From the NCBI GenBank assembly GCA_009103225.1, contig RHPI01000810.1, forward strand, positions 62,001 through 126,000: DNA of 64,000 bases. Reading direction: 5' to 3'. The stretch is from Chlorokybus atmophyticus (Eukaryota; Plantae; Mesostigma and Chlorokybus algae). Shown here in pieces: positions 3,670-39,612 of this stretch. Numbering within the stretch: the first letter of the stretch is position 1; each line of letters opens with the position of its first letter. Both the position numbers and the translations under genes were made by a program. The notes beneath the pieces are model-generated. The model ran no database searches and was not told the origin of the DNA. It was given only the letters and a program-made list of their open reading frames with translations.

Positions 3670-4751
3670 TGTCGGGCTGGGCTAGGTCGAGCACTAACAC
3701 GCCTCGAGGAACCGGAATATAGCCCCCCTTGTCGAGGACACTGTGCGAGCGCTTGACACTCATATCAAGTTGTGTTTCAGCAAATGCGATCAATAGTAGA
3801 GCATGTCAACAAGCCGTCTGTGTCGATGCAGTGTTCACAGTTTCTTGCACTGTGGTAAAGGATGGGTCCTCTACTGTTGAGTAAGGCGAATGAGCATAGC
3901 AACTACACAGATACCACACTCTGAATGCGATTAACACACCATCCACATGGGTGTAACCAAGTCCACCCTCATTATGATGGCAACAGCATCGTGTAAGGTG
4001 CGGTACTTGCTCCCACAATGGTGAAGGTTTCTTAGAAACTGGGACGGCTTACTGTGTACAGTCGTACTCCTTTCATAGCTTGCTGGCGTACATGACAACA
4101 ATCAATACCAAGTCCACGCACCGTAAACTCACCCATCAAGCCTCACATACCACACCGGACAGCAAGTCTCAACTCAGAATTTCTTACTCACAGTATCACC
4201 AAGTGTACAAGTGTCGGCTATTGCTATCTATATCATTGTGGCGGCACAGGAGTTAATGCACATAGTAAATGACACAGTCTTAACTATGAACTAGCGGTTC
4301 TGCTGGTTTATACCAAACTCCAGCGGATAGTTACGAATGCCGCCAAGGGAAGGCGCGGTTGAACTCACAATAGAGCGGCTATCGCGGGGGACCCTACGGT
4401 GTGCAGTGGTCGGGAGTAGCGCTCGCCGGGGACCCTTGGCTAGAGATTGTCAACGGGTCAGCTACGAGTCGATGCTTATGACGATAATCTGTTGAGTGGT
4501 TTTTCATGAGCCACTGATTAATGCTGATAGTGCGGGGGTGTGACATGGCTATGGGAATGTCCAAGGAGAATAAGCCCTCCTGGACGGTTAGCATAACAGT
4601 TGTCGGGCTGGGCTGGGTCGAGGGCTGACACGCCTTAAGAAACTGAAATGTAGCCCCCCTTATCGAGGACATCGTAGGTGCGAGCGCTTGTCACTTGTAG
4701 CGAGTTGTGTTCTAGCAAATGCGAACAACTGTAGAGCAAGTCAACAAGCCA
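3670..4751 (-). repeat. 3' A-NN-B-A repeat block of the outer element
   Basis: 4601-4751 repeats 3670-3816; 3817-4598 repeats 38844-39612; junction CCCGACA-AC-TGTTATG in element sense; G6 tract at 4752-4757 immediately upstream. Confidence 0.9.
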
Positions 4752-4789
4752 CCCCCCTTTAAGGTCTACGGCAGTCTCTGCCGCAGGCC

Positions 4790-5597
4790 TCAGCGTTTGC
4801 GGGTAATGCGCGCTTCATTGCGGCAGTCATTGCAATAGTAGGCCTCCAGTGGGACCTTTTTAAGTAGAGGGCCAAGATAGTAACAATGCATGCCGATGTT
4901 GCACCCGTCGCACAACTTCATTACAGCGTCGGCGTCGGCACTGCCACATTCTTCACAGCGCTTGCCATGGTCGGGGCGTGGGTGATGGATGACATCGAAC
5001 CCTGTTACTTGCGGTAGTTGGCATGGTGCGCAGTTGGTGATGTTGTCCTTGATGCGCTCGCCGTCGTTGCCAAGGAGGTCGTGCACACCAGAAGGGTGCA
5101 CCTTCAACTCCTGGTAGGCGACGCGCTGCACACTGATGTCTAGGGTGTCCTGTGTGCAAGCCTTTGGATAGATGAAGTCTCCAGCCTGAAAGCGCCGACT
5201 GCGCTGATTGTAGAAACCGATGCGGACACGCCTGTAATGTAGAATGTCGCGGTGTTTAGCGATGCGCAGGTTGTTTATGGCCATAGGGATTACGTGGCTA
5301 AAGAGGGCAGCGCGGGCCTTTATGTCATAATGCATCGAGTCATGGTTCCCGAGGTTGTTTAGCACCCGCGCGGCCTCTTGTTGTGCGAAAAGGCAGAAAT
5401 GGTTCACGTCCAAATAGCAGCTGATACGGATTGTATATGTTGAGGGCCGCCTACTTGGACAAGCGGTAAAGCGAGGGCCATCTAGGGCAGGTGCTCGTCC
5501 CATGTTCGCTTGCCGTAATCGATGACATACGTCCTGAGTGCCTTTTTTATGGTTTGAACAGTTCGTTTTGCCAACCCATCAGCCTATGGGTGGTCAC
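4790..5597 (-). pseudogene. Integrase C-terminal region plus PHD finger of the outer element
   Basis: Aligns with the integrase C-terminus of the inner element (FNNLRIAQHRD / INNLRIAKHRD). Ends in CEEC-x11-CDGC-x4-HCYY-x14-CNDC (about 4823-4957), a C4HC3 PHD with one Cys changed to Tyr. Confidence 0.85.
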
Positions 5598-7705
5598 CAC
5601 CGGTAAGAATGGCCCCCCAACAGTTCGGTCTTGCCCACAACTTAAATGGAGATCCAGGTATAACTTACTGAGGGATCCATATGCAAGCAACGTATCAATT
5701 TTTGCACTTTTTCCTGCTGCAGCCAAAACTTAGTTTGGTACCCAGCTGCCATAATGTCAAGTAGTTGGTGTGCATTAAGTTTGGTATCCGTCTTTTCTTG
5801 GATTTATCAATGGCCACATCTTATACAAATTTTTGGTTACATCATGTATCAAGAGGATTAATCTTAATGCGTGATCTAACCAGAAACATTATGGCCGCAG
5901 TTCGCGGCAAAAAGCCAAAACCGTCGCAACACCGGCCATTTAACGTCTCTCCATCGTCAACGTTGGAACTTGCACGGACGAGTCTGTCGGGTTAGTAAAC
6001 CACACCTAACCACCTTAGCACTGACTGACTAGACCACGACGACACAAGATATGGTGAGGTGTCTTTGCTAAATACATGATCCAGATACTTGCTCCGTCAA
6101 TAGTTTTACGTGCCAGTTGTATTGCATTCATGTTTACGCAATGAACAACATGTGTCCCGCGACACATGCACCACGGTTGCATACAACAGCTCTACACTGT
6201 ACACTGTACCGGTAAACAGTACTGACAAGTGTTTACAGTTTTTGATAATATTACGTGTACACCTACCGGTGATAAAAGGAAAAATATTACATGTGTATAC
6301 ATTACGAAAGACTGTAGACACAATAATCATAGACTATGTATCGAGACCTCGATAAATAGCCTATTATTATTCAACAGCTGAGCACCGGTAGGTGTTTTAA
6401 TATAAGTTGTTGGTTTGCGGGTAGCGTGGGGATTTTAACCTGGGTTAGCGACGCCAAGCATCCAATTACAGCGTTGGTTGTAGGGCAGGCTGTTGCCATA
6501 GACTCCCTGTGTTACCTACCATCGGCGAGTTGCGCCGATGCGTTATTAATTGATAGAGTGCTCAATGACAATTGGTCATATTATGATGCGTCATCATTTA
6601 GGCGAGTACCAAGTAGGCCGCGGGCACGCCTGTAGGTACTTAAGTACCTATAGGCACACTTGGACCGGCGATATATTGATGATATAAATATATAAAGGAA
6701 TAGTATCATACTATTCCTTTATATCAATCATTTGCTCTCGCAAGTTCTTCGAAATTGCCTATAAAAACTATCTTTATATCCAGGGTATTTAAGAGGCTGG
6801 GTGCAGGCGCAGTCCGGTAGATTACCCCCTTAATTTAATCGGCTTCGGGGAGGTAATCTCTCCATTATCTAATCTTAAATTACTCTTTATCGCAGATAGC
6901 TATCGATTACCGCTGCAAAAGATTGTCAGAATAGAGAGCCAATTTAGAGAGAAAGCCGGTAGGTTGGTCTGCCTGCAAAAAGCAACTTTCTTTACTTTTA
7001 TAATATAAAGATTAGAGAGAGATTACCCCCCCCCGCTGCAGCGCAGGCCAATTAAATTACTTAAAATACCTTAATGGGCAGACTGCTCTAAAAAAGAAAG
7101 TAAACAGCCGATGTGCGGTATCCAAGATCACTGGTAGAAAGGATCACCGCTCCACTGCAGCAGTACAGGGTTGTTTACATGGTGCATCATCGGTTAGAGT
7201 AACCCACAATTGGCAGATCCCGTATATCAAGACCGGCGATATATTGATAATCAGGTGGCCAGTAATTCAGGCGGTTGTAATAGTGCGATGTAGCGACCGA
7301 CGTTACAACTTTCTGACTGCTAGATCCATGCATTAATGACGAAACCAATCACGGTCGCAACAATGATTCGTACCGGCCATTGTTTTTACTTAAATGCGTT
7401 GTAATGTAACCACCGTGTCCCCAACGGTGTCACGAAAGTGGTCGATATTTTGATAGACATTCGTATAGGTCTTTGTCACGACCGTGGTTGTTAACAATCG
7501 TAACGCGCCGTCCTCGACGTTGTTAGAGGTCTACAATACAAATTAAGCGACCGGCCGATGGCCGCTTGTGACAGGTTCCAACTTATATAGGGATCTAGCT
7601 ATAAATTAATTAGGGATTTTGCGTATCCCTAACAAACTTTGCACTGAATTCTTTGTAATAAATTTAGGATCCAGCCTGACTTGCCGAAACCCATTTCCAT
7701 CGGTG
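5598..7705. mobile_element. Non-autonomous CACTA (En/Spm) element, copy 1
   Basis: Imperfect TIRs CACCGGTAAGAATGG / CACCGATGGAAATGG; 3-bp TSD CAC (5595-5597, 7706-7708); removal restores the integrase motif RTSRDHP. Confidence 0.85.
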
Positions 7706-8022
7706 CACGTGAGGTGCGACGGTGGTAAATGTAGGCGTGGTTGAGGAGCTCGTCGAACTCTCCCCAAAACTTAATGCTTTGATCTGTGACAATCTTAGCA
7801 CATGAGCCGAAGCGACTAAGAACGCGGTCTACGAAGGCACGAGCTACCCCCTTGCTGCTTATGTCTGGCAGTGGCAGTTGTTCTATCCGCTTGGAAAAGT
7901 GCTCAATCGTTATCTGGATGTACTTGTTCCCGCGAGCGGAGGGCGAGAGATTCCTAAGGATGTCCAAGCCCTAGCGGTAGGCGTTGGGTGCAAGGTGGCA
8001 CTGCGAGTGTTAAGGCTGGTGC
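7706..8022 (-). pseudogene. Integrase catalytic core fragment of the outer element
   Basis: ITIEHFSKRIEQLPLPDISSKGVARAFVDRVLSRFGSCAKIVTDQ matches the rve core of the inner element. Confidence 0.85.
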
Positions 8023-9429
8023 CACCGGTAGAAGTGGCCCCCAAACAGTTCCGCCTTGCCCTCAACTTAAATGGAGCTATTACTTAATTAGGGATCAGCA
8101 TGTAAGCAACGTATTGGATTTTGCATTTTTACCTGCTGCAGCCACAACTTAGTTTGGTATTTGACTGCCATTAAGGTCAAGTAGTTGGTGTGCATTAAGT
8201 TCGGTATCCGTCTTTTTTTCAACTTAATAATGTCCACATCCTGTACTATCTTTGGGTTCGATCATGTATTAAGGGGATTAAACTTAATGCGTGATCCAAT
8301 ACAAAAATGTTATGGCCGCAGCTCGCGGCTGTCGGGTCGAGGGGAGTCGAGGGTCACGCTGTCTCGGACAGCTGCATGGACAGCCATGCCGTGCTGGACA
8401 TGCTGCTGCGCCACCTGTGCAACGTGCAGCAAAAGGCAAAAGATGACCCCAACCCTCATGGTGACAAGTGCTCTGTGCAGCTGGTGTGCTGCTGCTGGGT
8501 AGTACGGGCCGGTGGAGTCGGTGTTCTCCCTAGTGTACATGCTGTGCTGTAGCACACAAAGTCAACAAGCCACTACTATAGGTAGTGCTGTTTACACAGT
8601 TCTTTGCATGAGTGGAAGAGAAATTACACTGTTAAGTGAGGTGAATGAGCAAGCAACACGTGGATGCTATGCCCTGACTGATACCAACAAGCACACCGCG
8701 ACCAAGTACACAAAGCTCACAGTAAAGACAAGCACAGTGCACAAGAACATGCACAGGCTCTCACACGGTGAGGGGATTCCTAGGAACCGGGACGGTGTGT
8801 TTCGTAGTTCAAGTCGCTTCACAAGCTCTTAGCTTTCTCACTTACAGTGTCACCAGCTGATCCGGTGAACACTGTGCCTACTTATACAAGTCAACTCATT
8901 ACTGTCCAGAATATAAGCTAACGGTTATATCGAGGCTATTTCCACAGGAAATCCCCACTCGATATAGAACCCAACTTATAACTGAACTCACAATTGAACA
9001 GCTACGCGCGGTGCATATGTAAGCTATGGTCATGAGCTACTCTAGAGACATGACCTAGCTACTGGTCAGAGACGCGCGCGGGTCGCCATGCTGGTAAGCC
9101 GGGCGAGGGTCTTGCTGTAGGCATACCCGATGACGACTGGCATGCTTGGGCGATAGGCATGACAGCTGTCGGGTCGAGGGGAGTCGAGGGTCACGCTGTC
9201 TCGGACAGCTGCATGGACAGCCATGCCGTGCTGGACATGCTGCTGCGCCACCTGTGCAACGTGCAGCAAAAAGCAAAAGATGACCCCAACCCTCATGGTA
9301 ACAAGTGCTCTGTGCAGCTGGTCTGCTGCTGCTGAGTAGTGCGGGCAGATGGAGTCGGTGTCCTCCCTAGTGTACATGCTGTGCTGTAGCACACAAAGTC
9401 AACAAGCCACCCCCCCTGAGCTTTNCCCC

Positions 9430-11470
9430 CCTGGGCTCTGGGGAAGGTTCCAGCTCCAGAGCTCAGCTTGTAGACGGTGCGGCCTACGGAGGTGTCAAGC
9501 GTGTCTTTGGTGGCTGCCATGCGATAGGCAAAGTCCCCCGCTTGGAACCGCCGTTGGCGCTCCTTGTAGAAGCCGCTGCGTACGCGCTCGTAGCGCAGCG
9601 TGTCGCGATGCTGCGCGATACGCAGGTTGTTGAAGGCCATGGGGACAATGCGCTCGAAAAGCGCTGCGCGCGTGGTGATGTCGTGGTGCATCCATTCCGG
9701 GTCGTCGAGGTTGTTCACGACGCGATCCACCTCCGGCTGCGCACGGAAGGGGAGCAATGGTGGTCGCCCGAACAGCAGGTAGTACGGGCTGTTCTCCCGC
9801 AGAGCCGCAATCGATATCCAAGGACCACCCACGGGAGGTGGTCATCCCAAGTGTTCTTCTCGTACTCCAGCACGTATTTGCGGAGTGCCTTCTTGATGGT
9901 TTTTATCGTACGCTCGGCGAGGCCGTCGGCTTGAGGGTGATCACGCGAGGTACGGCGGTGGTCGATGTAACATTTGTCCAAGAGGGTGTCGAATTCCCCT
10001 CTGAACTCAGTACCTTGGTCGGTGATGACCTCGGCGCAGCTGCCAAATCGGCTGAGAACGTGAGAGAGGAAGGCTTGAGACACCCCCCTACTGCTCTTGT
10101 CGGGTAATGGTACCAGCTCCACCCATTTGAAGAAGTGCTCGATCATGACCAAGATGTAACGGTTGCCACGCGCTGAGGGTGCCAAGCCCCCCAAGATGTC
10201 GAGTCCCCATCGGTAAAGAGACCGGAGATGGGGAGTGGGTGCAAGGTGGCGCTGCGCGTGTTGAGGCTGGCGCGCACCATGTCACACTGCTGGCACTAGC
10301 TGATGAACCTTTGCACCTGTTTTGTTAATCCATACCACCAATATTGTGCCCGCACTAGGCTTACTGTTCGCTTGACACCGAAGTGTCCAAGCTCAGTGTG
10401 GAGGGAAGTGATGATGCCCTCGCGCGTGCCCGGTGTCGGCACTTCCTTGTCTTCGTCGTGGAAACGGCGATACAGCTTGTCGCCTGCCCATGGATAGTGA
10501 CGGGTGCGTTGGTTGACTCGGTCCTTCTCGCGAGCGCTCATGCCGGAGGGAAGCTGGCCACTTTGAAGAAAGGAGAGTGATGGCTTGTCCTGCCATATGT
10601 CCTGCCTGGTGTCAGTGGGCGCCAGCTCTGTGTCATCGATGTCAATGTCGGCTGCGTGGGCGTCTCCCAAGGGTGTGGTTGTCGCAGGGTCGGTAGACTC
10701 AACGGCAGGAAGTTCCTCTGCCACTGCTGAGGCCGTGGTGTCGGTCTTGCGCCCTGAGCGCAACGTGGCAGCAGCAAACATTGCTGCCATGGTTAGGGCT
10801 GTTGCTGCAGGGATGAGCTCATGCCGAGCTCCAGTTGCGTTGTTGGTGCTGAGGTGAGGGTTGCGACTGAGGCCATCGGCGTCTTGGTTGGTGAGGCCAG
10901 CGCGGTGGTCGATCTCGAAGTCGTATTCCTGCAACAGCAGGGCCCATCGAGCAAGTTTCCCTGTCAGATGTTGGTTGGTCATCAGCCACTTGAGGGGCTG
11001 ATGATCGGTGATCAGTTGGAACTGTCGACCAAAGAGGAAAGGTCGGAAGAAGGAGATGGCCCACACTGCAGCGAGGCACTCCACTTCATAGCTGCTGTAG
11101 TTGGCCTCGGCGCTGTTGTTGCTCCGGCTGGCGTATGACACCACCCGCTCCTTCTTGTTCTCATCGTGCTGCACCAGCACCGCTCCCATCCCCAGCTTGC
11201 TCCAGTCGGTGTGAAGGATGAAAGGCTTGGCGTAATCCGGACGTTGAAGGATGGAGCGCTGGTGAGCCTACTCTTCAGCTCCTCGAAGGCCTGCTGTTGC
11301 GGCTCCTTCCATGCGAACTCCACCTCCTTCTTCAGTAGTTCGTTGAGGGGCCTCGCGATCTTCGCGAAGTCCTTCACGAACCGGCGATAGTAGTTGGCAA
11401 GTCCCAAAAAAGCGCGCAGACGTGTGAGGTCTGTCGGGGCAGGGTTAGCTGCCAGAGCCTCTACTTTTGC
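9430..11470 (-). pseudogene. RT connection, RNase H and DDE integrase of the inner element
   Basis: LGLANYYRRF; RNase H-like YASRSNNSAEANYSSYEVECLAAVWAISFFRPFL...TDHQPL; H2C2 (HTELGHFG...CQQC); rve core VITDQGTEF...HPQADGLAERTIKTIKKAL. Frameshifts and stops present; no PHD before the G tract, but an N at 9425 makes this end uncertain. Confidence 0.9.
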
Positions 11471-13537
11471 CTACTGCACATACACACCATGGGGCACAAT
11501 CATGTGCCCTAAGTACGGCACCTTGTGGGTGAAGAAAGTACACTTGTCGGGGTGTACGGTCATCCCCACTCCCTTGAGTCGTTCCAGCACCGCTTCGATG
11601 TGCTGAAGATGCTCCTCGTTGCTGCGGCTGAAGATGAGGATGTCATCGATGTAGCACCGCGCGCAGTCCAGCCCCTTCAAGGCTTTGTCCATGACGCGTT
11701 GAAACTTGGCGGGGGCATTCTTCAGCCCGAACGGCATTACCTTCCATTGGTACAACTGTTTGTTGCCCCAGAAGGAGGTCTTGTGCTTGTCCTCGTCCAT
11801 GATGGCGATTTGGTTGTACCCCTGACGCATGTCCTGGATGCTGAAGACTGTGCAGTCTTCCACATCATCAAAGATACCCTCTGCTGTGGGCATGGGGTAC
11901 CGGTCTTGCTTGGTCTTGTTGTTGAGGGGGTGATAGTCACCACACATGCGTCGCTCTGTCCAGTTGCCTGCTGAATCCTTCTTCAGTGGCATGAGGGTTG
12001 CTGCTGCGAAGTCCGATGTGAACTCTTCGATAAGGCCTGCATCCAGCAGCGCCTTACATCTCTGTTCCACCAAGTCTTCTTCCAACTTGGAGAGCCTGTA
12101 TTGTCGTCGGAACATCGGCTCAGTGTCCACCAGCTCAATGTCCATCTGGTACACTGAGCATGTACCCAATTCCTTCACATTGAAGCTGAATTGGCTCCAG
12201 TTGTTGAGGAGAGCCTCCAGCTTCTCTCGCGTGTCTTCTGTGGCCAATGGGCCAATGGCATGGTCCCAGGAGGTTGCATTGGCAACCACAGGAATGTCCT
12301 CCACTGTCACTGCTGCTTGCTCCTCCATGTGGATCACCTCGAGGGCTGTGTGAGCTGCCTTGGTGTCGGCTACGCGATCAGCCCACCCCCCAGCCAAGTG
12401 TTCGAGATCCTCGAAGGACACGTGGCGGTCTTGCAATGCGAAGCTCAGCTCCAGCAGCCATACCATGCTGTTCTGGTCCATGGCGCGACCAAGCAGCTGG
12501 CATTGCTGACTATCTGTCAGCGACGAGCTCGTGATGCTGTTGGGGAAGAGTCCCATGGCGCGTTCACGTTCGCGTGCGTTGGGTTCTTCCAGCCTGTTGG
12601 TGGTCGCATCGAACACCATCCCATCACCACCGTTCCGAAATGCGTAGGAGCCCGGGTAGGACACCAATGTGGGGAGTGCGCGACGGGGCTGCCCGGGCTG
12701 ATTGCACGGGTAGAAGTGGTGGTGGTCATGACGCAAGACAGGTTGTGCTGTGCGGCCGGGGTCAAGGATGTCATCGACCAGCAGGTTGCGCGGCCGAGCG
12801 CTGCGTGTGTATTCGGCGGTCATGAGTTCCTCCACGGTGGCCAGGTTTGTCCATTTGGCCCGTACACGATGTGCGCGCAAGCCATGTCGTGCCGCGTTCA
12901 CCTTGAGTGGGTGCCCCAGCATGGAGCAAACTTGTCGGTAGCTGGAGGCCACGTGCGGACGCTTGTCGTCCTCTAAAAGCACATGATCGATGACGTACCC
13001 CAGGGGTCTGGAGATCTGGTGGTGTTGAAGGAGGTGGATGATTCTCATCAGCTCCCAGAACAGCCCGGAGCGAGGGTTTTCGAGGCCTTGCCCCTTGCCT
13101 GCCCTGGAGTGTCCTTGGCATTCCCATCCAGCTATTAATAGGTCGACGTTGCCGAGGGACAGTAGGTGATCTTCACTGATCAGCCGGATGTCCTGTGGCA
13201 ATGCTTTGAGGCTGCCTTGCAGCGCCGAGAGGGGTAGTTGACGCGAATACCTTTCGTGCAATTGGCGTAAGTGGTGTTTGAGGACTGTCTGCGCGTGTGA
13301 GTCTGGGTCGCAGTAATAGTATTTGACAACCTTTACACCTGTGTTGAGGACCGCAGCAAGACCACTGCCAATGCCCCCAAACAGCTCCAACACCGTAATG
13401 CCCTGTTGCCTGCGAAAGGTGTGGAACTCCACCACTCTGGTGGCCACCATATGGTGGTCCTGCACCTTGTTGTGGCTTCTGTAGTTGGGGAAGCGCGTGG
13501 TGACCAGTGGATGGCTGAACAAGATGTGTGCGTCCAC
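11471..13537 (-). CDS. Pol segment: DNMT3-like C5 cytosine methyltransferase (about 12450-13420) fused in frame to reverse transcriptase
   Basis: Motif I ELFGGIGSG, IV IAGWECQGHS, VI VIDHV, VIII HRVRAKW, IX ERERAMGL, X QLLGRAMD; then RT motifs RMCGDYHPLN, MPFGLKNAPAKFQR, YIDDILIFS. Bounded by single in-frame stops (13568-13570, 11471-11473) where the outer copy has Gln. Confidence 0.93.
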   Translation of the reverse strand: MDAHILFSHPLVTTRFPNYRSHNKVQDHHMVATRVVEFHTFRRQQGITVLELFGGIGSGLAAVLNTGVKVVKYYYCDPDSHAQTVLKHHLRQLHERYSRQLPLSALQGSLKALPQDIRLISEDHLLSLGNVDLLIAGWECQGHSRAGKGQGLENPRSGLFWELMRIIHLLQHHQISRPLGYVIDHVLLEDDKRPHVASSYRQVCSMLGHPLKVNAARHGLRAHRVRAKWTNLATVEELMTAEYTRSARPRNLLVDDILDPGRTAQPVLRHDHHHFYPCNQPGQPRRALPTLVSYPGSYAFRNGGDGMVFDATTNRLEEPNARERERAMGLFPNSITSSSLTDSQQCQLLGRAMDQNSMVWLLELSFALQDRHVSFEDLEHLAGGWADRVADTKAAHTALEVIHMEEQAAVTVEDIPVVANATSWDHAIGPLATEDTREKLEALLNNWSQFSFNVKELGTCSVYQMDIELVDTEPMFRRQYRLSKLEEDLVEQRCKALLDAGLIEEFTSDFAAATLMPLKKDSAGNWTERRMCGDYHPLNNKTKQDRYPMPTAEGIFDDVEDCTVFSIQDMRQGYNQIAIMDEDKHKTSFWGNKQLYQWKVMPFGLKNAPAKFQRVMDKALKGLDCARCYIDDILIFSRSNEEHLQHIEAVLERLKGVGMTVHPDKCTFFTHKVPYLGHMIVPHGVYVQ

Positions 13538-13567
13538 CTGTGCGCGCCAGCGTCGTTCGGCTCGGTC

Positions 13568-14127
13568 TTATAATGCTACATCCACGGTGGCATCCTTTTC
13601 CTCCTCGTTGTACAGGGTGGGAGAGGAGTCGACGGTTCGACGTGGGACCGTGGCATCAGCAACGACTTGCGTCCGAGCGCCGTCGTATGTGGCCGTTGCA
13701 GCCTCCCGTGTGCGGGCATGGCTGCGTGTGGCCACGGCAGCCACTCTGCGTTGGGCGCGCGTGCGTGAGACCAACTCGAAAGGCAGGAAACCCTGCACCT
13801 CTCCGTCATCCTCATCCCAATGTGGCCGAAAGCACGCTCGCTCTGTCCAGCAGTCGAGGCCCATGCCCACAGGGAAGTTGAAGGAGCCGGCATTGGTGAC
13901 CACACATTGCTGGATGATCTCGGTCGTGTGGGTTGGGTCCAGCCCTGTCAACCGAATGCAAAAGACCTCCCTGGTGACCCCCATCACCTTATCTCGGCTA
14001 CCTGTGGCAGTGTCCAACACGTACGGGCAAGGCACCAAGTCGGAGCTGGTTATGCCAAGGGACCGCGCAAGGAAGCGCCCGATGATAACAGGCTGTGCTC
14101 CGGTGTCCAACATTACTCGCTTGGGTG
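13568..14127 (-). pseudogene. Retropepsin-type aspartic protease of the inner element
   Basis: KRVMLDTGAQPVIIG; same frame as the DNMT-RT ORF; upstream part lies beyond the solo LTR at 14128-14596. Confidence 0.85.
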
Positions 14128-14596
14128 TGTTGAGATTCGGACACTACTGACCATGCATGGAGTTGGTGCAAGCACAAGTACACACACTCTACCAGAGCAT
14201 ACACACAAGGCTGATCCAAAAGGCTTTCTAAGGATTACAACAAAGTCATACCGCGGGCTTTTATACCCGCCAGTTCTGCACCTGTCTACTCTAGAAGCCA
14301 CCACGACTTCTACACTCAACCGATTCCTAAGCTCTAAGTTGCACCACGTAGCTACTTTCAAGAGCTTTCCAACAAGCTATAACACGCGCCATACAATGAC
14401 GTAACCACCGAGCTACAACGTTTTTTTTACAGCGCCTGGAAGTCTCCAGACTCCGGACTCGACTCCGCGCCTGGAACCTTCTCGACTGAAGTCCTCGCCT
14501 GGACCTTTCTCGACTGGAACCTTCTCGCGCCTGAATTGTCTCGCGGCTATTCTTATCCACAGGGCAAGCTGACCGGATACAAGAATATCCTCAACA
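14128..14596. mobile_element. Solo LTR (TGTTGAG...CTCAACA family), copy 1
   Basis: TG...CA ends with 7-bp terminal inverted repeat; 5-bp TSD GGGTG (14123-14127, 14597-14601); removal restores INGLAP-KRVMLDTG. Confidence 0.85.
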
Positions 14597-15498
14597 GGGT
14601 GCCAGGCCGTTGATGGTAACGTGCTTGCCTTGGTTGGCCACCATGGCAGCATTGGCGTCGATAAGCAGCCTTTCCATACGAGTTGTCTGCACCTCTGACT
14701 CAGTTCTCTCAGCTGGGGGTGCTGAGCACATGGCAGCCAGAGCTCCTCTGCCTGCTGGGTTCGGAGAACCCCCTCCTTGCCCTCTCCCTCTGCCGAACCG
14801 ACCTTGTCGTGGTGGTTGGTAGACCCGGGGGGGCCTCGGTGCTGGAGGTTCCGGCACCGGTTGTGGTGGCGGCGCAGGTGGATGCCGCCTCTGCGAAGAT
14901 GGAATCGTGCCCGCGGGTGTACCCAATGGTTGTGGAGGAAACCCCGGCGGACCCGGTGTTTGTGGGCCTGCCTCGCGTTCAGCTTGCTCCGCGTACGTCC
15001 AGCGGACAGCATGAGCCGCCTCTCTGACCAACGTCCCTTCCCACGTGGCCGTGGGCTCGGTGTCCGTGTCGGTCCAATGATGATATTGATGCATGGGCTG
15101 CAGGTATACGGCGCGTAGTAGCTGTCGCCGCATGTCGTGAGTGATGGTGGGGACTCGCAAGATTCCTGCCATGTAGGCATCCCACCTTCCTTGTACCACT
15201 CCCACATCGAGCACGGTCATGGCGCGCGCGCGTAGGGTGCGCTGGAGGTCAGGTTGATGTGCGTGCAGCTCATGAGCAATGGCGATGCGCCGCTGTTGGC
15301 CAGGGGTGGAAGCCGCAGCAGTGCCTCTTGCACTCCCTCCAGCGTGTCCGGGGCTGTGGTGGCAGCCTCGTCGTATGCTTGTCGCAGCGACCGAACGAAT
15401 GCCCCCAACCATGATGCTCGGTTGCCAAAGGCAAACAGGGGGACAGCAGGGTGATTGGCAACGAGCCATGTCACGAGACGGGCTCGAGCGGCGCTGCC
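14597..15498 (-). CDS. Uncharacterised conserved region between gag and protease
   Basis: YMAGILRVPTITHDMRRQLLRAV...TATWEGTLVREAAHAVR is conserved in the outer element (MAGILNVSTITNRIRNELVRAI...TASWEATLVREAAHVVR, 34466-34726). Confidence 0.6.
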
Positions 15499-16496
15499 NN
15501 NNNNNNNNNNNNNNNNNNNNNNNNNNNNNNNNNNNNNNNNNNNNNNNNNNNNNNNNNNNNNNNNNNNNNNNNNNNNNNNNNNNNNNNNNNNNNNNNNNNN
15601 NNNNNNNNNNNNNNNNNNNNNNNNNNNNNNNNNNNNNNNNNNNNNNNNNNNNNNNNNNNNNNNNNNNNNNNNNNNNNNNNNNNNNNNNNNNNNNNNNNNN
15701 NNNNNNNNNNNNNNNNNNNNNNNNNNNNNNNNNNNNNNNNNNNNNNNNNNNNNNNNNNNNNNNNNNNNNNNNNNNNNNNNNNNNNNNNNNNNNNNNNNNN
15801 NNNNNNNNNNNNNNNNNNNNNNNNNNNNNNNNNNNNNNNNNNNNNNNNNNNNNNNNNNNNNNNNNNNNNNNNNNNNNNNNNNNNNNNNNNNNNNNNNNNN
15901 NNNNNNNNNNNNNNNNNNNNNNNNNNNNNNNNNNNNNNNNNNNNNNNNNNNNNNNNNNNNNNNNNNNNNNNNNNNNNNNNNNNNNNNNNNNNNNNNNNNN
16001 NNNNNNNNNNNNNNNNNNNNNNNNNNNNNNNNNNNNNNNNNNNNNNNNNNNNNNNNNNNNNNNNNNNNNNNNNNNNNNNNNNNNNNNNNNNNNNNNNNNN
16101 NNNNNNNNNNNNNNNNNNNNNNNNNNNNNNNNNNNNNNNNNNNNNNNNNNNNNNNNNNNNNNNNNNNNNNNNNNNNNNNNNNNNNNNNNNNNNNNNNNNN
16201 NNNNNNNNNNNNNNNNNNNNNNNNNNNNNNNNNNNNNNNNNNNNNNNNNNNNNNNNNNNNNNNNNNNNNNNNNNNNNNNNNNNNNNNNNNNNNNNNNNNN
16301 NNNNNNNNNNNNNNNNNNNNNNNNNNNNNNNNNNNNNNNNNNNNNNNNNNNNNNNNNNNNNNNNNNNNNNNNNNNNNNNNNNNNNNNNNNNNNNNNNNNN
16401 NNNNNNNNNNNNNNNNNNNNNNNNNNNNNNNNNNNNNNNNNNNNNNNNNNNNNNNNNNNNNNNNNNNNNNNNNNNNNNNNNNNNNNNNNNNNNNNN
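15499..16496. other. Assembly gap (N run)
   Basis: Run of N; other ambiguous positions at 469, 9425 and 54690-54859. Confidence 1.
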
Positions 16497-17501
16497 GGGC
16501 CGGCAGCGGCGCGCTATGCGCGCGCTGACCGGTATGGGCCTAAATTGGCCGGTCCTTGGATGGTGGGGCCGGTGACCGACCCTAAATCAGACCCCTGGGA
16601 AGAAAATTCCCCAGCTGATGAGAGCGCCAGCTGCCGAGGACGTCAGCGTTTTTAAGTGGGGGGAAATGTAACGGGAAGGTACATTGAATTACCACAGATC
16701 GACCATAAAAGCACCAAGTCTTTTGTGGTCGAGTGGGCTGTGACAATAACATCGTAAATGGTCACTTTAAAAGTGCCATCATCGATGGGTCGCGACTTGC
16801 CTAATGGTAGTCGCGCCGAGCTGATCAGTTCAGTCGGCGCGGCAGGGCGCGACCTGCCTATCGCGGCGACGCGGCCTGTGGGGCCGGCAGCGGCGCGCTA
16901 TGCGCGCGCTGACCGGTATGGGCCTAAATTGGCCGGTCCTTGGATGGTGGGGCCGGTGACCGACCCTAAATCAGACCCCTGGGAAGAAAATTCCCCAGCT
17001 GATGAGAGCGCCAGCTGCCGAGGACGTCAGCGTTTTTAAGTGGGGGGAAATGTAACGGGAAGGTACATTGAATTACCACAGATCGACCATAAAAGCACCA
17101 AGTCTTTTGTGGTCGAGTGGGCTGTGACAATAACATCGTAAATGGTCACTTTAAAAGTGCCATCATCGATGGGTCGCGACTTGCCTAATGGTAGTCGCGC
17201 CGAGCTGATCAGTTCAGTCGGCGCGGCAGGGCGCGACCTGCCTATCGCGGCGACGCGACCTGTGGGGCCGGCAGCGGTGCGATATGCGCGCGTTGACCGG
17301 TATGGGCCTAAATTGGCCGGTCCTTGGCTGTGGGGCCGGTGACCGACCCTAACAAACCCTATGGGTAATTCCCCAGCTGACCGGGCAGCTGCCGAGGACG
17401 TCAGCGTTCTTAAGTGGGGGGGAATGTAACGGGAAGGCACATTAAAATACCACAAATCGACCATAAAAGCACCAAGTCTTTTGTGGTCGAGTGGGCTGTG
17501 A
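16497..17501 (+). repeat. Tandem array (374-384-bp period) of a TRIM-like mini LTR element
   Basis: Units start TGTAACGGGAAGG at 16667, 17051 and 17425, each preceded by purine tract AAGTGGGGGG(A)AA; 13-bp hairpin TCGACCATAAAAG-8nt-CTTTTGTGGTCGA; same family as 55185-56206; left end hidden in the gap. Confidence 0.85.
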
Positions 17502-26824: not shown

Positions 26825-29800
26825 TGTAACAGTCGAGGCCAAGTTTTAGGGGATTTAGGACCTTTTTGGGCCCATTTATCGAGCACCACGTTTTCATGAC
26901 TTGTGGCAGATATCGGCGAGTTACGAGTCTGCCGCGGATATCGACCGGGGCCCCAGGACCAGTCCTGAAGGTGCCCAGAAACGGAGGGCCAGTCGAGAAG
27001 GGCTTGACCAGATTTCTGGAAGGGCCTGGCGCCAAGTAGTATAACTTGACCATATGAGCACCTACTCAGGAGATCTTGGTGCGTAAGAAAGGTCCAGAAG
27101 TATACTACAAGGTTATGCAATAACATCTTAGCATCTAGTTTTGTGTAGCACAGGAATCGTCTAGACAGTAGCATGTGCAGACTGGTAGGTATAAAAGCGA
27201 CACTCCTAAAATGTGCAATACAACCTTTAGCTCCCTAGTTTCTGGTGTGCAAGCTTGGTGGTGGTTAGCAGAGGTTACTAGCGTGTGTCCACTGGTGTGT
27301 GCTTGCTTGTGTGACGATCAAAGGCACTACACAAGTCGGTGTGTAGCTTCGAGCGCATGCGCGTGCGTACGCGAGTGGCGGGGCGCGCGTGTGTGCTTGG
27401 CAACGGGGGCAAGGTTCCGGTGCGAATAACAAGTCTTGGTGAGAGGGTTGTTGATTGGACCACATTACAGGTGACAAGGCACGAGCACCGTCACAAGTGT
27501 TATTGGAGCACGGTTTACCAAGGTGAGAGAAGAAGTGTGTGGGCGTTTACACTTTTTTATTCGGAAGTGGAGTGTAGTGTGTTAGTGGAGATGGAGGATG
27601 CTCGCATGGAAGAGTTTCAAGCTGCCATCTTAGCATTGAGGGAAGAGCTTCATCACACTCAAACGGCGGCACAAGCACAACGCGAGGCGTATGAGCATGC
27701 GATGGCGCGTGTACAAGTTCCCATGGCATCAAGCTCGCGCGTGCATGTGACGGTGCCAAAGCCCAAGCCATTCAAGGGTCAACGTGATGGAGATGCAATG
27801 GACGAATGGATTCTTGAAGTAACGTCTTGGTTGAAGCTCACGGAGGTGCCCACGCATCTGCACGTGGAGGTTGCAGCGACATTGCTTGAAAGTGCAGCAC
27901 TTGTATTGTGACGGTGCTCGTGCCTTGTCACCTGTGAGTTGGTCCAATCCACAACCCTCTCATCAAGACACGGTATTCACACCGGAACCTTGCCCCCTCT
28001 GCCAAGCACACACGCGCGCCCCGCCACTCGCGTACGCACGCGCATGCGCTCGAAGCTACACACCGACTTGTGTAGCGCCTTGGATCGTCACACAAGCAAG
28101 CACACACCAGTGGACACACGCTAGTAACCTCTGCTAACCACCACCAAGCTTGCACACCAGAAATTAGGGAGCTAAAGGTTGTATCGCAAATTGTAGAATG
28201 TCACTTTTATACCTACCAGTCTGCACATGCTACTGTCTAGACGATTCTAGCGCTAGACGAAACTAGAAGCTAAGATATAATTGCAGAATCTTGTAGTACA
28301 CTTCTAGACCTTTCCAACGCACCAAAGATCTCCTAATTTGCTGCTCATATGGTCAAGTTATACTACTTGGCGCCAGGCCCTTCCAGAAATCTGGTCGAGC
28401 CCTTCTCGACTGGCCCTCCGTTTTCTGGCACCTTCCGGATTGTTCTTGGGGCCCCGGTCGATATCCACGGCAGACTCATAACTCGCCGATATCCGCCACA
28501 AGTCATAAAACATGTACCTTACAAATAAGGCCTAAAACGGCCATGAAAATCACAAAATTTGGCCTTGACTGTTACATGTATGGTGGAGACATCGTTGTAT
28601 GTGTTTTGGAAGTGGGTTGGCGCTACCATTGACCACCATGGAAGAGTTGGCGCTGGAGATCAGGCATCCGTTTGTTCCCGTGGAGAGTGTGAAGGCCGCA
28701 CGCGATAAAATTGCAACCCTTGTGCAAACGAGGTCGCTGACGGCGTACACGGCTATGTTCAAGCATTGGTGATGTCCATTACCAACATGACCGAGGAAGA
28801 GCAGTTGGACAGGTATACACATGGTTTAATACCTTTGGGACGCAAAGAAGTGGAGCTACGGGATTCTAAAACTATGGCGAAAGCTATACGCATTGCGGAG
28901 CGTCTCGACGCGTTGTACTTCAAATCTTTTGCAACGAATGCTGACTGAGGCGTGGGAGCAAGCAAGAGCATGGTGATCAGCCTAGGGGAAGCTTTCAACA
29001 TGCATGGACACGAAGGGAATCAGGTTCACAACTTGCAAAGGAGGGTGGAGCTGATTTTGGACCATCACCAATTGAGATGGGTGCCGTACACACGCGTAAC
29101 GGCGTGGCGAAGCACGATGGACATGGTAAGGCAGGTAGCAGCGTGCGCAAGTGTTACGTGTGCGGTTCAACACAACATTTGGCGGTCAATTGCTGAAAGC
29201 GGCGCACGCAAACGTCTGCATCAGCTTGCAACACATGTATCGCGCGACGCATCAACGCAATGAAGGAAAATGGCGTGGAGGATCAGGGAAACGACTGACT
29301 GCCCCCAGTAGGTAAGGAGGCTACTGCTGGGGATGAGGGGGAGCCTCACGCACAAATGAAGATTGTGACATCGCAACCAAGGAAGAAAATGGAGGTGGCT
29401 ATGAACACGCCCATGGTGGTAAGTTATGCAAGCGAGAAGGCAACAAAATACGTTGGGCTATTAGCATTTGCGATGACCGAGGACAATGGAGGGAGTGCAA
29501 CCTTATGGTTGATAGTGGAGCAAACATCAACTTCATGAGTGAGGAGGTTGCTTGGCGCTACGGTTGGCTTTCATCATTATGAGGAGGAGAAGTGAAACTC
29601 GCTAATGGGGAACCACCCTCTGAAGGTACCGGTGCTGCTTTTGTAACTAAGGAAATGTGTGTTCACATGGGGAAATTGACGGAGAGTATGCGTTTCTGCT
29701 GCATCACCCTACGGAACGGGTTTGATGGAATTTTGGGACTACCGTGGCTGTGGCAACGTAACCCATCTATCAATTGGAAGAAGCGTGTGCTCACCATCGA

Positions 29801-33776: not shown

Positions 33777-36700
33777 GGGGTCTTGTAGTGCCACCTCTAT
33801 GCTGCGCGTGGGAACGCTAACGGAGGCAGGTGGAGACGATCGGGCAATAATAGCCACAGCTGCTAAGCAGTGTGGGGAGCGTGTCTCCACCACGAAGTTT
33901 GCTAGCAGCTCACCACGCTCGCTTGTGCCAGTGCGCAAGTGCGAGTGGAACTAGAATCGTTGAGTCAATTGCTGATGTCGCTGCCAACTACATACAACCA
34001 TACCTGACCCAAAATCAAGGCGTAGTTGCCACAATCTGACACTACACACCTGACGGCGTAGTCAGTGGTGTGTAAGGGGTTGAGACCAATTAGAGTGATG
34101 GGGATGGCCTGCTCGGTGACGCCGAGCGCCTTCTGCGCGGTGTCCATCAAAGTGTTGAGCGTGTATGTGCAAGAATCCAAGTCAGCCGCAGTGATGTTCA
34201 GCGCGCGCGCCATGTACTTGCCGATAAAGATTGGCTGCGCACCTGACTCCATCGGAACGCGCTTTGGTGCCTTGCCGTCAATGAGGATGTGCTTGTTTTG
34301 GTTGGCCACCATGACGGCGTTGGGTGTGACGCTGGTGCGGTCGATGGCACGTCGTGAGGCGCGTTCGGCTGACGTGCCTGTGGATGGGTTGCCAGGGCGC
34401 TGAGCTACCATGGCGCTGCGTTGCTTGGACGGCCCGGCCTCGCTGCCTCCTACCCCCCCTAATGGTTATGGAACGGATGCCGGTCTTGGGCTAGGCTGTG
34501 GCGAGCCGCTTGAGGAAGACATATCGGTGGCCGCCTCCTCCCGCGCGGTGCGTACGACGTGGGCTGCCTCACGCACGAGAGTGGCCTCCCATGAGGCTGT
34601 GGAATGCCCTAGATTGTCGTCATCGCTGCAGACCTCACGCCGTGGCATGGGCATCAAGGAAATGGCGCGCACTAGCTCGTTGCGGATGCGGTTTGTAATG
34701 GTGGATACATTGAGGATGCCCGCCACAAAGGGATCCCACTAACCGCGCGTGATGCCCATGTCGATGATGGTCATGGCATGCAAGCGCACTGATGGGGCAG
34801 TCTCGGCTGGTCGCTGTCGCCTACAGTGTATATGAAAGTTGTTGAGCTGGACGCGCTGTCGTGCTGCCTCTAGGCAAGGCAGGGTGGCAATAGCAGCTCT
34901 GGCGGCTGCTGTGGAACGCAGTTGTTCGCCGCCTGTCCCGTCGTTGAAAGCGGTTTGCGGCATGGCGGGATGTGTGTTTACCAGTCACAGTAGTTGCTGG
35001 GCCTGGGCGCGGGTCATGGTGTTGTATCCCAATACAAGGTGCTGGGGATGCCTCTTAAATGCGTGAGTTGCAACAGCAGGTGTGCCCATATCTTCTGCTC
35101 CCCATAGAGACCCTATCCATGGCGGTGGTGGAAACCTGCGAGGGTGATGTTGCCTCCCGCGGTTGGTTCCGGCGAGTAGCTGTCCACGAATGCGTCAATC
35201 CTTGTGGGGATGCTTGCGCCTGATGGGCAGCGTGCTCTTGTTGCACCCATTGACCAACCTGTTGCAGCGCATGCATCCGTCGTACACAGTCACGCTGATG
35301 TGGATCCCCTAACGAATGAGTGTTGTTATGGAGGGACTAATTGGCTGCCCGCCGTACAACGGGGTGATCGCTCAGTGAAAGAAGGGGTGTCGGGTGCTCA
35401 GTGGTGGCGTGGTCGGGATAGATGAACGGCGCGGTGTGATACCTTTACCACAGGTACCAAAACAACCTACGTGCCACCCTGCTCAACACAATGTCACCGA
35501 AATGGAACTAGAAGTTGCGATGCCACATTGTGTCCCTCCCTGGATAGCACGTTGTTCTTGACATCCTCCTTGTCCTCTATATTGGGTGGTGGTGCGCACA
35601 GTGGTGTCAGTTGTGGTTGCGGAAAGAACGCGTGCGTGGTGCGAAATTCTGACATCAGTTGGCCGGGCACTCTAGAGGTGTCCGGGGAGGGGACCCTAAA
35701 AGGATCGTGCAGCGCCCGTGTTGATGTGCCCGCTGCAAGTGCGGAGGGTGCTGAAGAAGGCACCCGCTGTACCGTCAACAGGGGTTGTTGTGGTGGCAGA
35801 GGTGATAGTTGCGGTAATAGCTGCGGCAAAGGCAGCGCTGATGGTGGTGCCTACACCAATGGTTGCGGCAGCTGCCAATGCTTGTGCCATGAGCAAACTG
35901 CGAGCGACGTCGTCCGACGTTGACAATTGATGAGGGGACTTAACAACCTCCTCTGCTGCTGCAGCGGTAGCGATCTGTATGGCCTATAATAGAACCTCTG
36001 GCATTGATTCTCCAGCCTCGGCAACAATTGTTGGAGCTGTCTCGCTGCGTTCGGCTGCAGTGGTTACAATTATGCGAAGGGAAGCTGTTGTTGCAGCCAG
36101 ACCGGCGAGGTCAACTACCAATGTCTTCAGGGCTGGGGCTACAGATGTTGCAGACACCTTGGTAGGTGGTCTTACAGGGGCTGCCTCAGGCGGTGAGGCT
36201 GAGAAGCGGGACTGACAGGTGCCGTTGTTGGAAGCAAGGCATGTGCTGCTTTGGCTACTGCCTCAGCCGATTGTCTGGCGCTCTCTGCCTGTGGTGCGGC
36301 CGCCGCATCAACGGCTTGCTTGGCGGTAGCCTCAGGAGCTTGCTACGCGGCCGCAGCTTTAGCGGCTTCCTGACGAGTGCGTTCCCCTCGCGCGGGCTGT
36401 CGGCGTGTTGGTGAAGGAGGAGGCGACGGCCTGCGCTTTATCTCCATGGATGCCCACCGTGCTGCATACAAGGGATGGTAGTTGTCCTAGGGCTCCTACA
36501 GCTTGAGCTATAACTCTTGAACTTGGGCAGTGAGAGCTGCTACTTAAACTTGTGGCGGTGCTGGAGCCACCTGAGCAGTGGCGGCTGCGCGCTGTCCTGT
36601 GTTTTTGTTTTTATTGCGGCGGTCTGTTCTCCCTCGGTAGCCATTGCCGTTTTTTTTGTTGTTGTTGTTGTTGTTGCCGCTGTTTGGCCTCATCTCAGGG

Positions 36701-38630
36701 TGCTTGGCATAGCACACTGCTTTAAGATGTCCTGTCTTCTGGCAGTGACCGCACACCATCTTTTCGTACTCCTCGGGGCACTCTTTTTGACACTGGCGGT
36801 GCCGTCCATAGCGATGACAGAGTACAGGAGCAGGCAGCGCGGTATGTGCAGTTTTGGAGGCACCTTTGTGTTGAGATGGATGATGACAAGCATACACATG
36901 CACAAGTGCACGCCACAACACCAGCGTCAGGAGACCATACAAGACCATCTATTGCCATCATGTCCACGGATTTTATACTCGCCAGCTACAGATGCTTCAA
37001 CTCTAGAAGCTACTTCATCTAGCACACTTAACCATAACTTGTGCTCCAAGTTGCTCCACGTAGCTAGTTCAAAGAGCTTTCCAAAAAGCTATGGCACACG
37101 CCGAATAGTCAAGTAACCATCGAAATACAATTACTTTAATACAGGGTTGAGAAGTCTCCAGACGCTGAAATCGCCGACGCGCCTGGAACCTTCTCGCGCC
37201 TGGACCTCTCGACCTGAGTCGCATGGAACCATTTAGCAACTATTTTTATGCAGAGGGCAAGCTGACCGGCCGACCTGGATGTTGGAATATTCTCAACACT
37301 TTGTTGGGGCTGGATGTGTTTTAAGAATGGTCTCGTGGACTCGTCTGATTTTGAGGAGGGTGAACGTGAACTACAGTTGTTCATATCCAACACTGCTCCC
37401 TCCCACACGCGCCGCTCATACAGTGCCGATGCCACTTTGAACGCCAGCATTAGGAAATAATCGCTTGGCCTGGTGTTCCCCATTGTCAGGCAGACAATGT
37501 CATTCAGCGGGTGCTCCAGCTGACTGACGTATACAGCTGCAGCAGCGTCGTCGCTGATACTGCGACCTCGGATGTCACGCAGCAGCTGAGCAAGACGTGT
37601 GTACATCCGCAAGGTTTCCTCACCGTTCTTGCGTCTGAAATGTCTCAGCTCCTCGACCTTGTGGCTGGTCTGAGCTGGGAAGGTACGCCGTAGAGCAGCA
37701 TAGACGTCCTAAAGAGGGGAACCGGTGCGTTCCACAAGGATAGTGAATGAAGGCAATCACACCATGGCTAATCCCACAAAGATGGAGCCGGGCGCGGGAG
37801 ATTTGAAGGTGCCTTGAGAGGCTGTAGGGGCTTATGCCCTGGATGCGGCCTCGGCCGCTTCCGCTCTGGTCCTCACGGCAGCTTTTGAGGAAGCAGCAAC
37901 AGTGCGGCTACGTTGGCGCATCAATCGCATGGTGCGCAGCTCTATCTCCGCTGCTCGAAACTGCTATGCCTTTTCGTACTCCTCATCACTCATGACGCCA
38001 CATACCACCGGGCTGTCGCTGCCGTTGCTTCCTCTTCAGCAGTGGCCAACGCGTCAATCAGAAGAGGCCCAGGCATGGGTGCAGGCTGGAATGCCACTGT
38101 GGTAGCAGCATCTGGCGGGGGTGGCGTAATGACAGTCTCGCGGAAGCTAGCGATGCGATGACGAATGGCCACCGACCTCCGTACTTGTGCTGCTTCATGC
38201 TGCAGGATCTGGGGCGCCACCCGGAAGGACATCTCGTCCGACCATGTGCCAAACTTGGCAGCTTGGTAGCACATCTTGAAGTCGAACTTGACGATGAAGT
38301 CCTCCGGAGTGGTGGTGCCGGGGCGGCAAGAGAAATGCAGGGCATGGGTGTTGCTAAGAGCCTCTATGTCGTCGATATTGTTGTCGATTGTGTGCGAACG
38401 AGGATGGTGACGTGGAGGGGAGTGACGCGAGCTGTGTGGAGCCGATGGGCGGGACCGTGGCTGCTGCAGAAGTCCTTTGCGTCGTAGCTGAACCGTCGAC
38501 TGTAGGAGAGGTCTGAGTCCAGCCTCCAGCCAACTGGACTGGTTGCTGAAGCTTCTCTCCGTAATGGGATTGGCGACAAGTCCGCCGTGAGGGAGTTGTG
38601 TCTCTCTACGAGCTGGGGACCCACTCATGC
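33777..38630 (-). pseudogene. Protease, linker region and gag of the outer element
   Basis: KRVPMESGAQPIFIG (degenerate DTG motif); knuckle remnants CHRYGRHRQCQKEC and CGHCQKTGHLKAVC; FSCRPGTTTPEDFIVKF; collinear with the inner element. Confidence 0.8.
36869..37298. mobile_element. Solo LTR (TGTTGAG...CTCAACA family), copy 2
   Basis: TG...CA ends; TSD CTTTG (36864-36868, 37299-37303); internal similarity to 14128-14596. Confidence 0.85.
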
Positions 38631-38824
38631 GTATGCACGATGGGAACGTGGATGCAGCTATATTGTGTATGCTCTAGTATTATCTCACCCACGATGTCAC
38701 CTCACGCACTAATGTAGAATTGCGCTATGTGCGAGCGAATGACAAACACTACAATGTCGCAACCAGTCTGACGGCAACATTGCACGCAGCACGGATGCAA
38801 GACACTCATAAGCAAGGGGGTGGT

Positions 38825-39612
38825 ACTGTAAATCAACAAGCCATCTGTGTCGATGTTGTGACACAGTTCCTTGCACTGAGGTCAATAATGGGGACCTTTA
38901 GTGCTAAGTAAGGCGAACGAGCGTAGCAACTACACAGATACCACACTCTGAATGCGACCAACACACCGTCCACATGGGTGTAACCAATTCGGCCCTCGTG
39001 GCAACCATACCGTGTAAGGTGCGGTACTCGCTCCCACAATAAAGGTTTCTTGGCAACCGGGCGGCTCTCTGTGTACAGTCGTACTCCTTCACAGCTTGCT
39101 GGGCGTACATTACAACAATCCATACCAAGTCCACGCACTGCAAACTCACCCAAATCAAGCCTCACATACCACACCGGAACGCAAGTCTCAACTCATAATT
39201 TCTTACTCACAGTATCACCAAGTGTACAAGTGTCGGCTATTGCTACTTTTGCCACTGTGGCGGCACAGGAGTTAATGCACATAGTAAGTGATATAGTCTT
39301 AGCTATGGACTAGCTGTTCTGCTGGTCTACTATGCTCCAACGGATAGTCACAAATGCCGCCAAGGGAAGGCGCGGTGAACTCATAACGGAGCGGCTATCG
39401 CGGGGGACCCTACGGTGCAGTGGTCGGGAGTAGCGCTCGCGGGGGACCCTTGGCTGGAGATTGCCAACGGGTCAGCTATAAGTCGATGCCTATGACGACA
39501 GTCTGATAAGTGGTTCGTCGTGACCCACCAATTGATTCTGATATTGCGGGGGTGTGACATGGCTTTGGGAATGTCCGAGGAGAATGAGCCCTCCTGGACG
39601 TTTAGCATAACA
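38825..39612 (-). repeat. 5' B repeat of the outer element plus 19-nt motif at the PBS position
   Basis: 38844-39612 repeats 3817-4598; followed in element sense by TGGCTTGTTGATTTACAGT (38825-38843). Confidence 0.88.

Follow-up and report, generated by a model that had tools for sequence, protein, structure and literature searches.

The stretch analysed here, 64,000 nucleotides of the alga Chlorokybus atmophyticus (contig RHPI01000810.1, positions 62,001 to 126,000; the window, in whose own numbering positions are given), carries on its minus strand two Ty3/Gypsy-type retrotransposons with split direct repeats, E1 (3670-39612) and E2 (8330-20943). In both, two segments, A and B, are arranged as 5'-B-internal-G tract-A-NN-B-A-3', the ends are TG...CA, and the element is flanked by 4-bp target site duplications (TSDs), GAAC for E1 and CGGC for E2. 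An earlier note on this DNA had claimed this layout together with the internal junctions CCCGACA-AC-TGTTATG (E1) and CCCGACA-GC-TGTCATG (E2). The layout is borne out by the repeat coordinates, as are the ends and the duplications, and the junctions read exactly as claimed. Both elements are decayed copies; E1 is old and broken by nested insertions, E2 is younger.

Layout, coding content and insertion sites of E1 and E2

The order in E1 is B-gag-PR-DNMT-RT-RH-IN-PHD-PPT-A-NN-B-A (PR, protease; DNMT, cytosine methyltransferase; RT, reverse transcriptase; RH, RNase H; IN, integrase; PPT, polypurine tract), with the TSD copies at 3666-3669 and 39613-39616. Its 5' insertion end is the TG start of B1 (38830-39612), which is followed by an 11-nt primer-binding position (38819..38829) pairing with 39209-39219 in B1 with one mismatch. 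Gag and protease remnants (33968..38673), the broken DNMT and RT (24583..26825), the broken RNase H and integrase zinc-binding region (22134..23070), a first piece of the integrase core (7707..8018) and the C-terminal part of the integrase with the PHD finger (4790..5604; PF00628, E 1.6e-4) lead to the G tract at the PPT position (4752-4757). Then come A1 (4601-4751), the junction CA-AC-TG (4592..4607, spacer 4599-4600), which is a candidate integrase attachment site and would be the place of cleavage, B2 (3803-4598) and A2 (3670-3816), whose CA is the 3' insertion end.

E2 (8330..20943; TSD copies at 8326..8329 and 20944-20947) has the same layout and is nested in a miniature inverted-repeat transposable element (MITE) within E1. 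Its B1 (20338-20943), starting with TG, contains a TATA-like box (20660-20665) and, 33 nt below it, a predicted self-primer (20619-20632; 20619..20665 together); the 11 nt past the end of B form the primer-binding position (20327..20337). Gag with a zinc knuckle (17576..20175), an aspartic protease (13568..14143), a DNMT fused to RT (11471..13567; PF00145, PF00078), the end of RT with RNase H and the integrase H2C2 region (10296..11470) and a frameshifted integrase with an rve core of the form D-D(34)-E (9430..10281) precede the G tract at the PPT position (9410-9416). A1 (9167-9409), the junction CA-GC-TG (9158..9173, spacer 9165-9166), whose core GACAGCTGTC is a palindrome, B2 (8559-9164, with a copy of the self-primer at 8840-8854) and A2 (8330-8572) complete the element. 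Unlike in E1, no PHD finger was seen in E2.

The two copies of A are identical at 236/244 positions in E2 and 122/146 in E1, those of B at 592/606 and 689/776. B ends, and A begins, with a 14-nt repeat, M, which the earlier note had not noticed; it lies at 38830-38843 (B1) and 4738-4751 (A1) in E1 and at 20338-20351 and 9396-9409 in E2, and it is present as a single copy at the join between B2 and A2 (3803-3816 in E1, 8559-8572 in E2). M has been kept in both elements although their A bodies do not align.

The coding content comprises gag, protease, DNMT, RT, RNase H and an rve integrase, plus the PHD finger of E1, and the domain order PR-RT-RH-IN is that of Ty3/Gypsy. The only nuclease-type domain detected with Pfam was the integrase, which has the retroviral fold and whose best matches, by sequence (PDB) and by fold, were the integrases of PFV and Ty3. 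In agreement with the claim that a DDE integrase alone is visible, Pfam scans of 23 + 32 open reading frames (ORFs) gave no tyrosine recombinase match, with some short ORFs of the window left unscanned and a gap of 998 Ns in E2. An intact-looking relative (L002) has two long ORFs and no other frame longer than 169 aa; a recombinase nested in another frame of it was looked for and not found. A chromodomain after the integrase was not found either; L002, L037 and E1 have a PHD finger only.

Of 142 proteins, 87 matched the integrase pattern; the spacing was DD(34)E in 85 of them, the other two being fish Gypsy elements, and it was also DD(34)E in all 33 matches within 80 metagenome loci. The clade thus departs from the D-D(35)-E spacing of Ty3/Gypsy; in two controls, the chromovirus at 26825-33774 of the window and L086, DD(35)E occurs together with paired long terminal repeats (LTRs). 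Compared with PFV integrase by phmmer, the integrases of the clade (e.g. window 9718-10281) lack a residue just before the active-site loop, although its placement is uncertain; the predicted fold confirms the family and leaves the missing residue unplaced. In L002 (976-8229) an in-frame stop separates gag-PR-DNMT from RT-RH-IN-PHD, and many homologs begin at RT, which may mean read-through. Four homologs (P0005, P0007, P0009 and P0015) have the DNMT between RNase H and integrase rather than between protease and RT, so that the domain must have moved or been gained twice.

Two random 4-mers match by chance in the window with p=0.0044. When E2 was excised in silico, a continuous match to two sister MITEs was obtained (75-76% over ~450 bp), and after excision of E1 one frame stayed open across the site. 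The TSDs, which the earlier note considered validated by their empty sites, are supported by the restored MITE and the open frame. The hAT label of the E1 target got no support from Pfam, which found no hAT domain in 25 ORFs of the E1 flanks; the label goes back to a motif resemblance.

E1 is free of gaps from PHD through A1-B2-A2, whereas E2 contains two gaps, the one of 998 Ns and a single N (9425) that lies at a distance of 9 nt from the G tract. Short-read contigs from two runs (X1 and X2) of two studies, one of which may be the source data of the window, were compared with the E2 junction. At least six bridged it, several with 8-17 differences, which shows that diverged subfamilies carry the junction too. 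Among the matches listed, at least 10 contigs leave the A end and at least one leaves the B start into unrelated flanks at 9164-9167, and the loose ends at the other end of B (8559) consist of primer-site-like sequence, not of random flanks. As a general explanation, an assembly artefact is refuted by these data. A 793-bp repeat (21339-22100 / 23789-24556) and other TGTCGGG matches were considered as further family copies and proved to belong to MITEs.

Priming sites, relatives and repeat joins

The sequence just past B can pair with a stretch inside B. In E2 there are 14 perfect pairs, a value reached by none of 40 shuffles. Among the 19 B1 copies the pairing outscored at least 39 of 40 shuffles in 13, and in 11 of those 13 it lies 31-33 nt below a TATA match. 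The primer sequence differs from family to family. Three more families have pairings of 13-16 nt below a TATA-like word (without shuffle control), and in the decayed E1 the pairing was not significant against shuffles. If A-NN-B is taken as the LTR, a primer-binding site (PBS) is present after the 5' repeat and a PPT before the 3' repeat, and the PBS is complementary to the 5' end of a transcript whose start is predicted from the pairing and the TATA spacing. The G tract before A and the self-priming site after B thus support A-NN-B as the LTR that reverse transcription would make, in line with what had been proposed, and would place the insertion ends inside this LTR. A tRNA-type PBS, suggested by the TGG with which M begins, was given up in favour of the self-complementary site, without a search of a tRNA library.

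Homologous proteins place the clade in Klebsormidium, Closterium, liverworts and Haematococcus; no relatives were found in scans of viral contigs. From a scan of metagenome contigs 80 of 455 loci were taken, which after deduplication (97% over 800 bp) formed 64 clusters. The count of 3' ends was made on 36 of these, 28 being left out as too short or belonging to unmapped families, and the pair L050/L051 was counted apart. A-NN-B-A was found in 17 of them, a single A followed by flank in 18, and one was rearranged; the full layout is hence not the rule. None of the 19 distinct 5' ends had an A before its B, and all of them started with the TG of B, so the mirror layout B-A-NN-B-internal-A was seen in none of these metagenome loci (the window's own families stand outside this count). 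Two full LTRs flanking the internal region occurred in neither window element and at none of the 19 metagenome 5' ends. Among 15 two-ended loci, eight had an exact 4-bp TSD, four had one mismatch and three had none.

The junction spacer was 2 nt in 17 of 17 metagenome copies, and their junction core hardly differs from that of the window despite RNase H identities of only 37-49%. The core recurs in further families (L001, L002, L006, L024, L081-L083) whose A and B bodies are otherwise unalike, and in L079 it is changed on both sides, to GGCA-GC-TGCC. A conserved core together with a two-sided change is what would be expected of a pair of attachment ends recognised by a protein. The window ends, the contig flanks and the metagenome loci with TSDs agree that the internal junction, split in two, supplies both insertion ends, as had been suggested, and an internal attachment junction is strongly supported by the sequence comparisons.

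The join between B and A behaves differently. Of 17 copies, 7 had a blunt and uniform join and 10 an altered one, whereas the internal junction was altered in none of the 17 (scored by eye; Fisher p=3e-4). Among the altered joins some had lost 1-7 nt or gained bases, that of L033 carries an insert of 17 nt, and that of L018 has lost ~150 bp with the TSD still exact. Insertions and deletions at the join with none at the junction are the mark of end-joining. Element-specific variants common to A2 and its own A1 numbered 28 against 10.0 expected, which was reached in 0/10000 permutations, indicating that A2 was recopied from A1. Taken together, these sequence data strongly support an end-joined B/A seam.

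L050 (3880-4320) and L051 (3190-3900) represent one insertion (overlap 99.5%) with the exact TSD CATT and both attachment ends; its left side carries the end of A and its right side the start of B, each in inverted orientation. The right inversion starts at the pairing between primer and primer-binding site, as if the cDNA had folded back before insertion. Another relative (L049/L058, 7789-12903) has its RT-RH-IN segment inverted internally. L081-L086 are contigs of eukaryotic retrotransposons in bacterial genome bins, likely contamination, and the assembly of L081 is a closed path whose two 127-bp ends are identical, as would also be expected of a multi-copy family.

A proposed route of integration and its alternatives

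The account that we favour as probably correct is that the insertion ends are the halves of the internal CA-NN-TG, likely cut by the DDE integrase, and that the true ends of the cDNA are probably fused with one another, most likely before insertion. Transcription would start inside B about 30 nt below the TATA box, and reverse transcription would be self-primed as in Tf1, by the first ~11 bases of the transcript pairing with the site that follows B. Plus-strand priming at the G tract, as established for LTR reverse transcription, would then give a linear cDNA, A-NN-B-internal-A-NN-B, with two junctions. The upstream junction would be the first to become double-stranded, because the minus strand has to copy only one LTR, but the plus strand ~10 kb; integrase would commit to this junction and cut after CA on both strands. 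To judge from the scars, the free cDNA ends, where B stops and A starts, would be joined by end-joining or by annealing of a short repeat, which in the families of the window would be M, and this joining would most likely precede strand transfer. Insertion with a 4-bp TSD would yield B-internal-A-NN-B-A, the product actually observed, and such a copy would keep promoter, repeat and junction for the next round. The B-internal-A copies could come from a one-LTR intermediate, from cutting at both junctions, or from recombination between the A copies.

Several points weigh against this account. The cutting, the bias towards the upstream junction and the order of the steps are what we infer from genomic sequences, and whether joining came before or after insertion is not readable from such copies. 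Six of the 19 B1 copies, E1 included, have no significant primer pairing, and 3 of the 15 two-ended loci have no TSD. The counts rest on two families in a few related metagenomes, and the mirror count does not include the window's own families. Furthermore, the seven blunt joins among the 17 and the clean single M of E1 and E2 would also be expected of template jumping by RT.

A different order of events, which we regard as unlikely though worth keeping in mind, has the same internal cut but lets the two pieces insert first, leaving a chromosome break between the B end and the A start for the host to repair, so that no circle is needed. End-joining would then produce the full layout and annealing between the A copies B-internal-A, which accounts for the nearly equal numbers of full and single-A ends (17:18), for the 150-bp loss in L018 and for the 17-nt insert in L033. 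This model needs a double-strand break at each insertion and the same junction bias, and the matching TSDs of 12 of the 15 two-ended loci, which mean that mis-joining is uncommon, count against it. It is less probable still that RT itself makes the join: using microhomology at the termini it would carry out a third strand transfer, and integrase would cut the resulting over-long or rolling cDNA internally. The presence of the 14-nt M at both predicted cDNA ends, its retention in E1 and E2 while the A bodies do not align, the 7-nt overlap in the L081/L082 family, and L050/L051, where template switching through the primer site left both attachment ends and an exact TSD, would all fit such a transfer, but the overlap is at most 2 nt in the two scored metagenome families, and their scars vary.

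A closed two-LTR circle cut at either junction at random would account for the layout as well as for the 2-nt spacer and the scars at the join. Since its two junctions are equal, it also predicts, from cuts at the downstream one, the mirror layout, whose absence from 19 5' ends has p=2e-6 if half of the insertions were of that form and 0.004 if a quarter were. Unless selection removes mirror copies, the circle model is contradicted by this, and we consider it very improbable; the zero count indicates that the upstream junction is preferred. From the earlier proposal of a circularised cDNA cut at one internal junction, what stands is that the B/A join is made anew, and what does not is the plain circle open to cutting at either junction. 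Hardly any credence is left for an assembly artefact, a chance rearrangement of ordinary LTRs, or an insertion of the PAT/Ngaro type by a tyrosine recombinase, all refuted as general explanations. The N beside the G tract of E2 and the topology, which is that of split-repeat recombinase elements, speak for this group; the bridging of the junction by at least six short-read contigs from two studies, the layout in 17 distinct metagenome loci, the intact L002 without a recombinase match, and the TG...CA ends with 4-bp TSDs speak against it.

Relation to known elements and significance

The layout, of which the earlier note knew no description for DDE-integrase LTR elements, has been noted before. 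KnitGypsy-Dnmt3 of Klebsormidium nitens (de Mendoza et al. 2018) is described in the legend of Fig. 4c as having a DIRS-like repeat structure with Gypsy domains (PMC5890265), and like E1 and E2 it has a DNMT in Pol. The accessible text of that paper gives no junction, TSD, priming or mechanism for it. In the literature searched, which lay outside Repbase, theses and most subscription journals, no mechanism for the layout was found, the layout itself appeared only in PMC5890265 as far as accessible, and the name KnitGypsy-Dnmt3 occurred in no other paper. K. nitens proteins were among the homologs, one of them with DNMT-RT-RH-IN. In a midpoint-rooted tree of 37 RTs, with long branches and without the named reference lineages Chlamyvir, Tcn1 and Phygy, the RTs of the window and of K. 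nitens formed a group (33 rows) apart from three other Gypsy RTs, with a support of 84/77, below the star threshold. L079, which has a CA-NN-TG junction, was sister to one K. nitens protein (100/100).

With canonical Ty3/Gypsy elements (Metaviridae) E1 and E2 share the gag-PR-RT-RH-IN order, the Gypsy RT and RNase H, the PPT, the TG...CA ends and a short TSD. Unlike these, the clade has no full LTR pair, its insertion ends are not the ends of reverse transcription, and its integrase is DD(34)E. The self-primer of Tf1 is 11 nt long. Tf1/sushi elements and Tcn1 prime themselves instead of using a tRNA (PMC4600332, PMC6317226), and in the clade, too, the PBS can pair with the predicted start of the transcript; those elements have ordinary LTR pairs, while the clade has split repeats, PHD and DNMT, and no chromodomain match.

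PAT, TOC1 and Ngaro are tyrosine-recombinase elements with split direct repeats. The clade resembles them in its A-coding-B-A-B topology and, likely, in inserting by opening a junction within an end-joined intermediate; it differs in having no recombinase, and in its DDE integrase, 4-bp TSD, PPT and Gypsy RT. SymbioDIRS has the same split direct repeats, A-coding-B-A-B (PMC5890265). Retroviral integrase is able to cleave the internal palindrome of a 2-LTR junction (PMC1905944, PMC4372172), and here too a DDE integrase would cut an internal palindrome of two attachment ends (see also PMC1180852). The retroviral junction is formed from the cDNA ends and serves a side path, whereas the clade encodes its junction, with a spacer of 2 nt, inside the LTR, and all ends seen can be traced to it. 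Gypsy-7a_cRei of Chlamydomonas is an active, PHD-bearing Gypsy element; according to a legend, its left LTR is missing the last 8 bp that the right one has (PMC9940879). A very short A would give such an offset, which makes this element a lead only.

Other features of the window were as follows. An ordinary chromovirus-type Gypsy element with paired LTRs and a 5-bp TSD is nested in E1 on the plus strand (26825-33774) and contains an inverted solo LTR with its own 5-bp TSD (27906-28576). Inserted in the pol region of E1 are three non-coding transposons (5597-7707, 8022-22105 and 23065-24563) that are related to each other; their inverted ends are short, their TSDs are apparently of 3 bp, and we take them to be CACTA-like. 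A 384-bp tandem repeat (16497-17504) adjoins the 998-N gap of E2 and recurs as an inverted pair near 55-56 kb (55185-56206). A DDE_1 transposase remnant (40997-41920) and a gene resembling HEAT-repeat dynein assembly factors (58546-60481) were also present; this gene, like the homologs of the elements, would point to a green alga as host.

The clade is a real and widespread variant of the Ty3/Gypsy element, mechanistically unexplained in the literature searched. While its layout was known (PMC5890265, figure legend), the self-primer evidence, by which A-NN-B would be the LTR, the scars at the B/A join and DD(34)E are new. LTR finders look for two full LTRs with TG...CA (PMC6317226), and because of this requirement they would mis-annotate elements of the clade.

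In textbook LTR elements the substrate of integrase is the pair of termini that reverse transcription produces, and two-LTR forms with joined ends lead nowhere or to a side path. We think it fairly probable that in this ancient green-plant Gypsy clade integration has been uncoupled from those ends: both attachment ends would lie in one internal palindrome, an adapted DD(34)E integrase would cut it as the sole route, choosing one of two identical junctions, end-joining of the cDNA would be needed for a replicating copy, and an active member may proliferate in laboratory Chlamydomonas. The DD(34)E spacing may be related to the internal cut. For the clade as a whole, end-joining appears to have become obligatory and cleavage at the internal site to be the principal route, and the split-repeat layout would have arisen twice, with different enzymes. 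The clade would also offer a natural, testable system for the old retroviral question whether a joined-end junction can be the normal substrate of an integrase.

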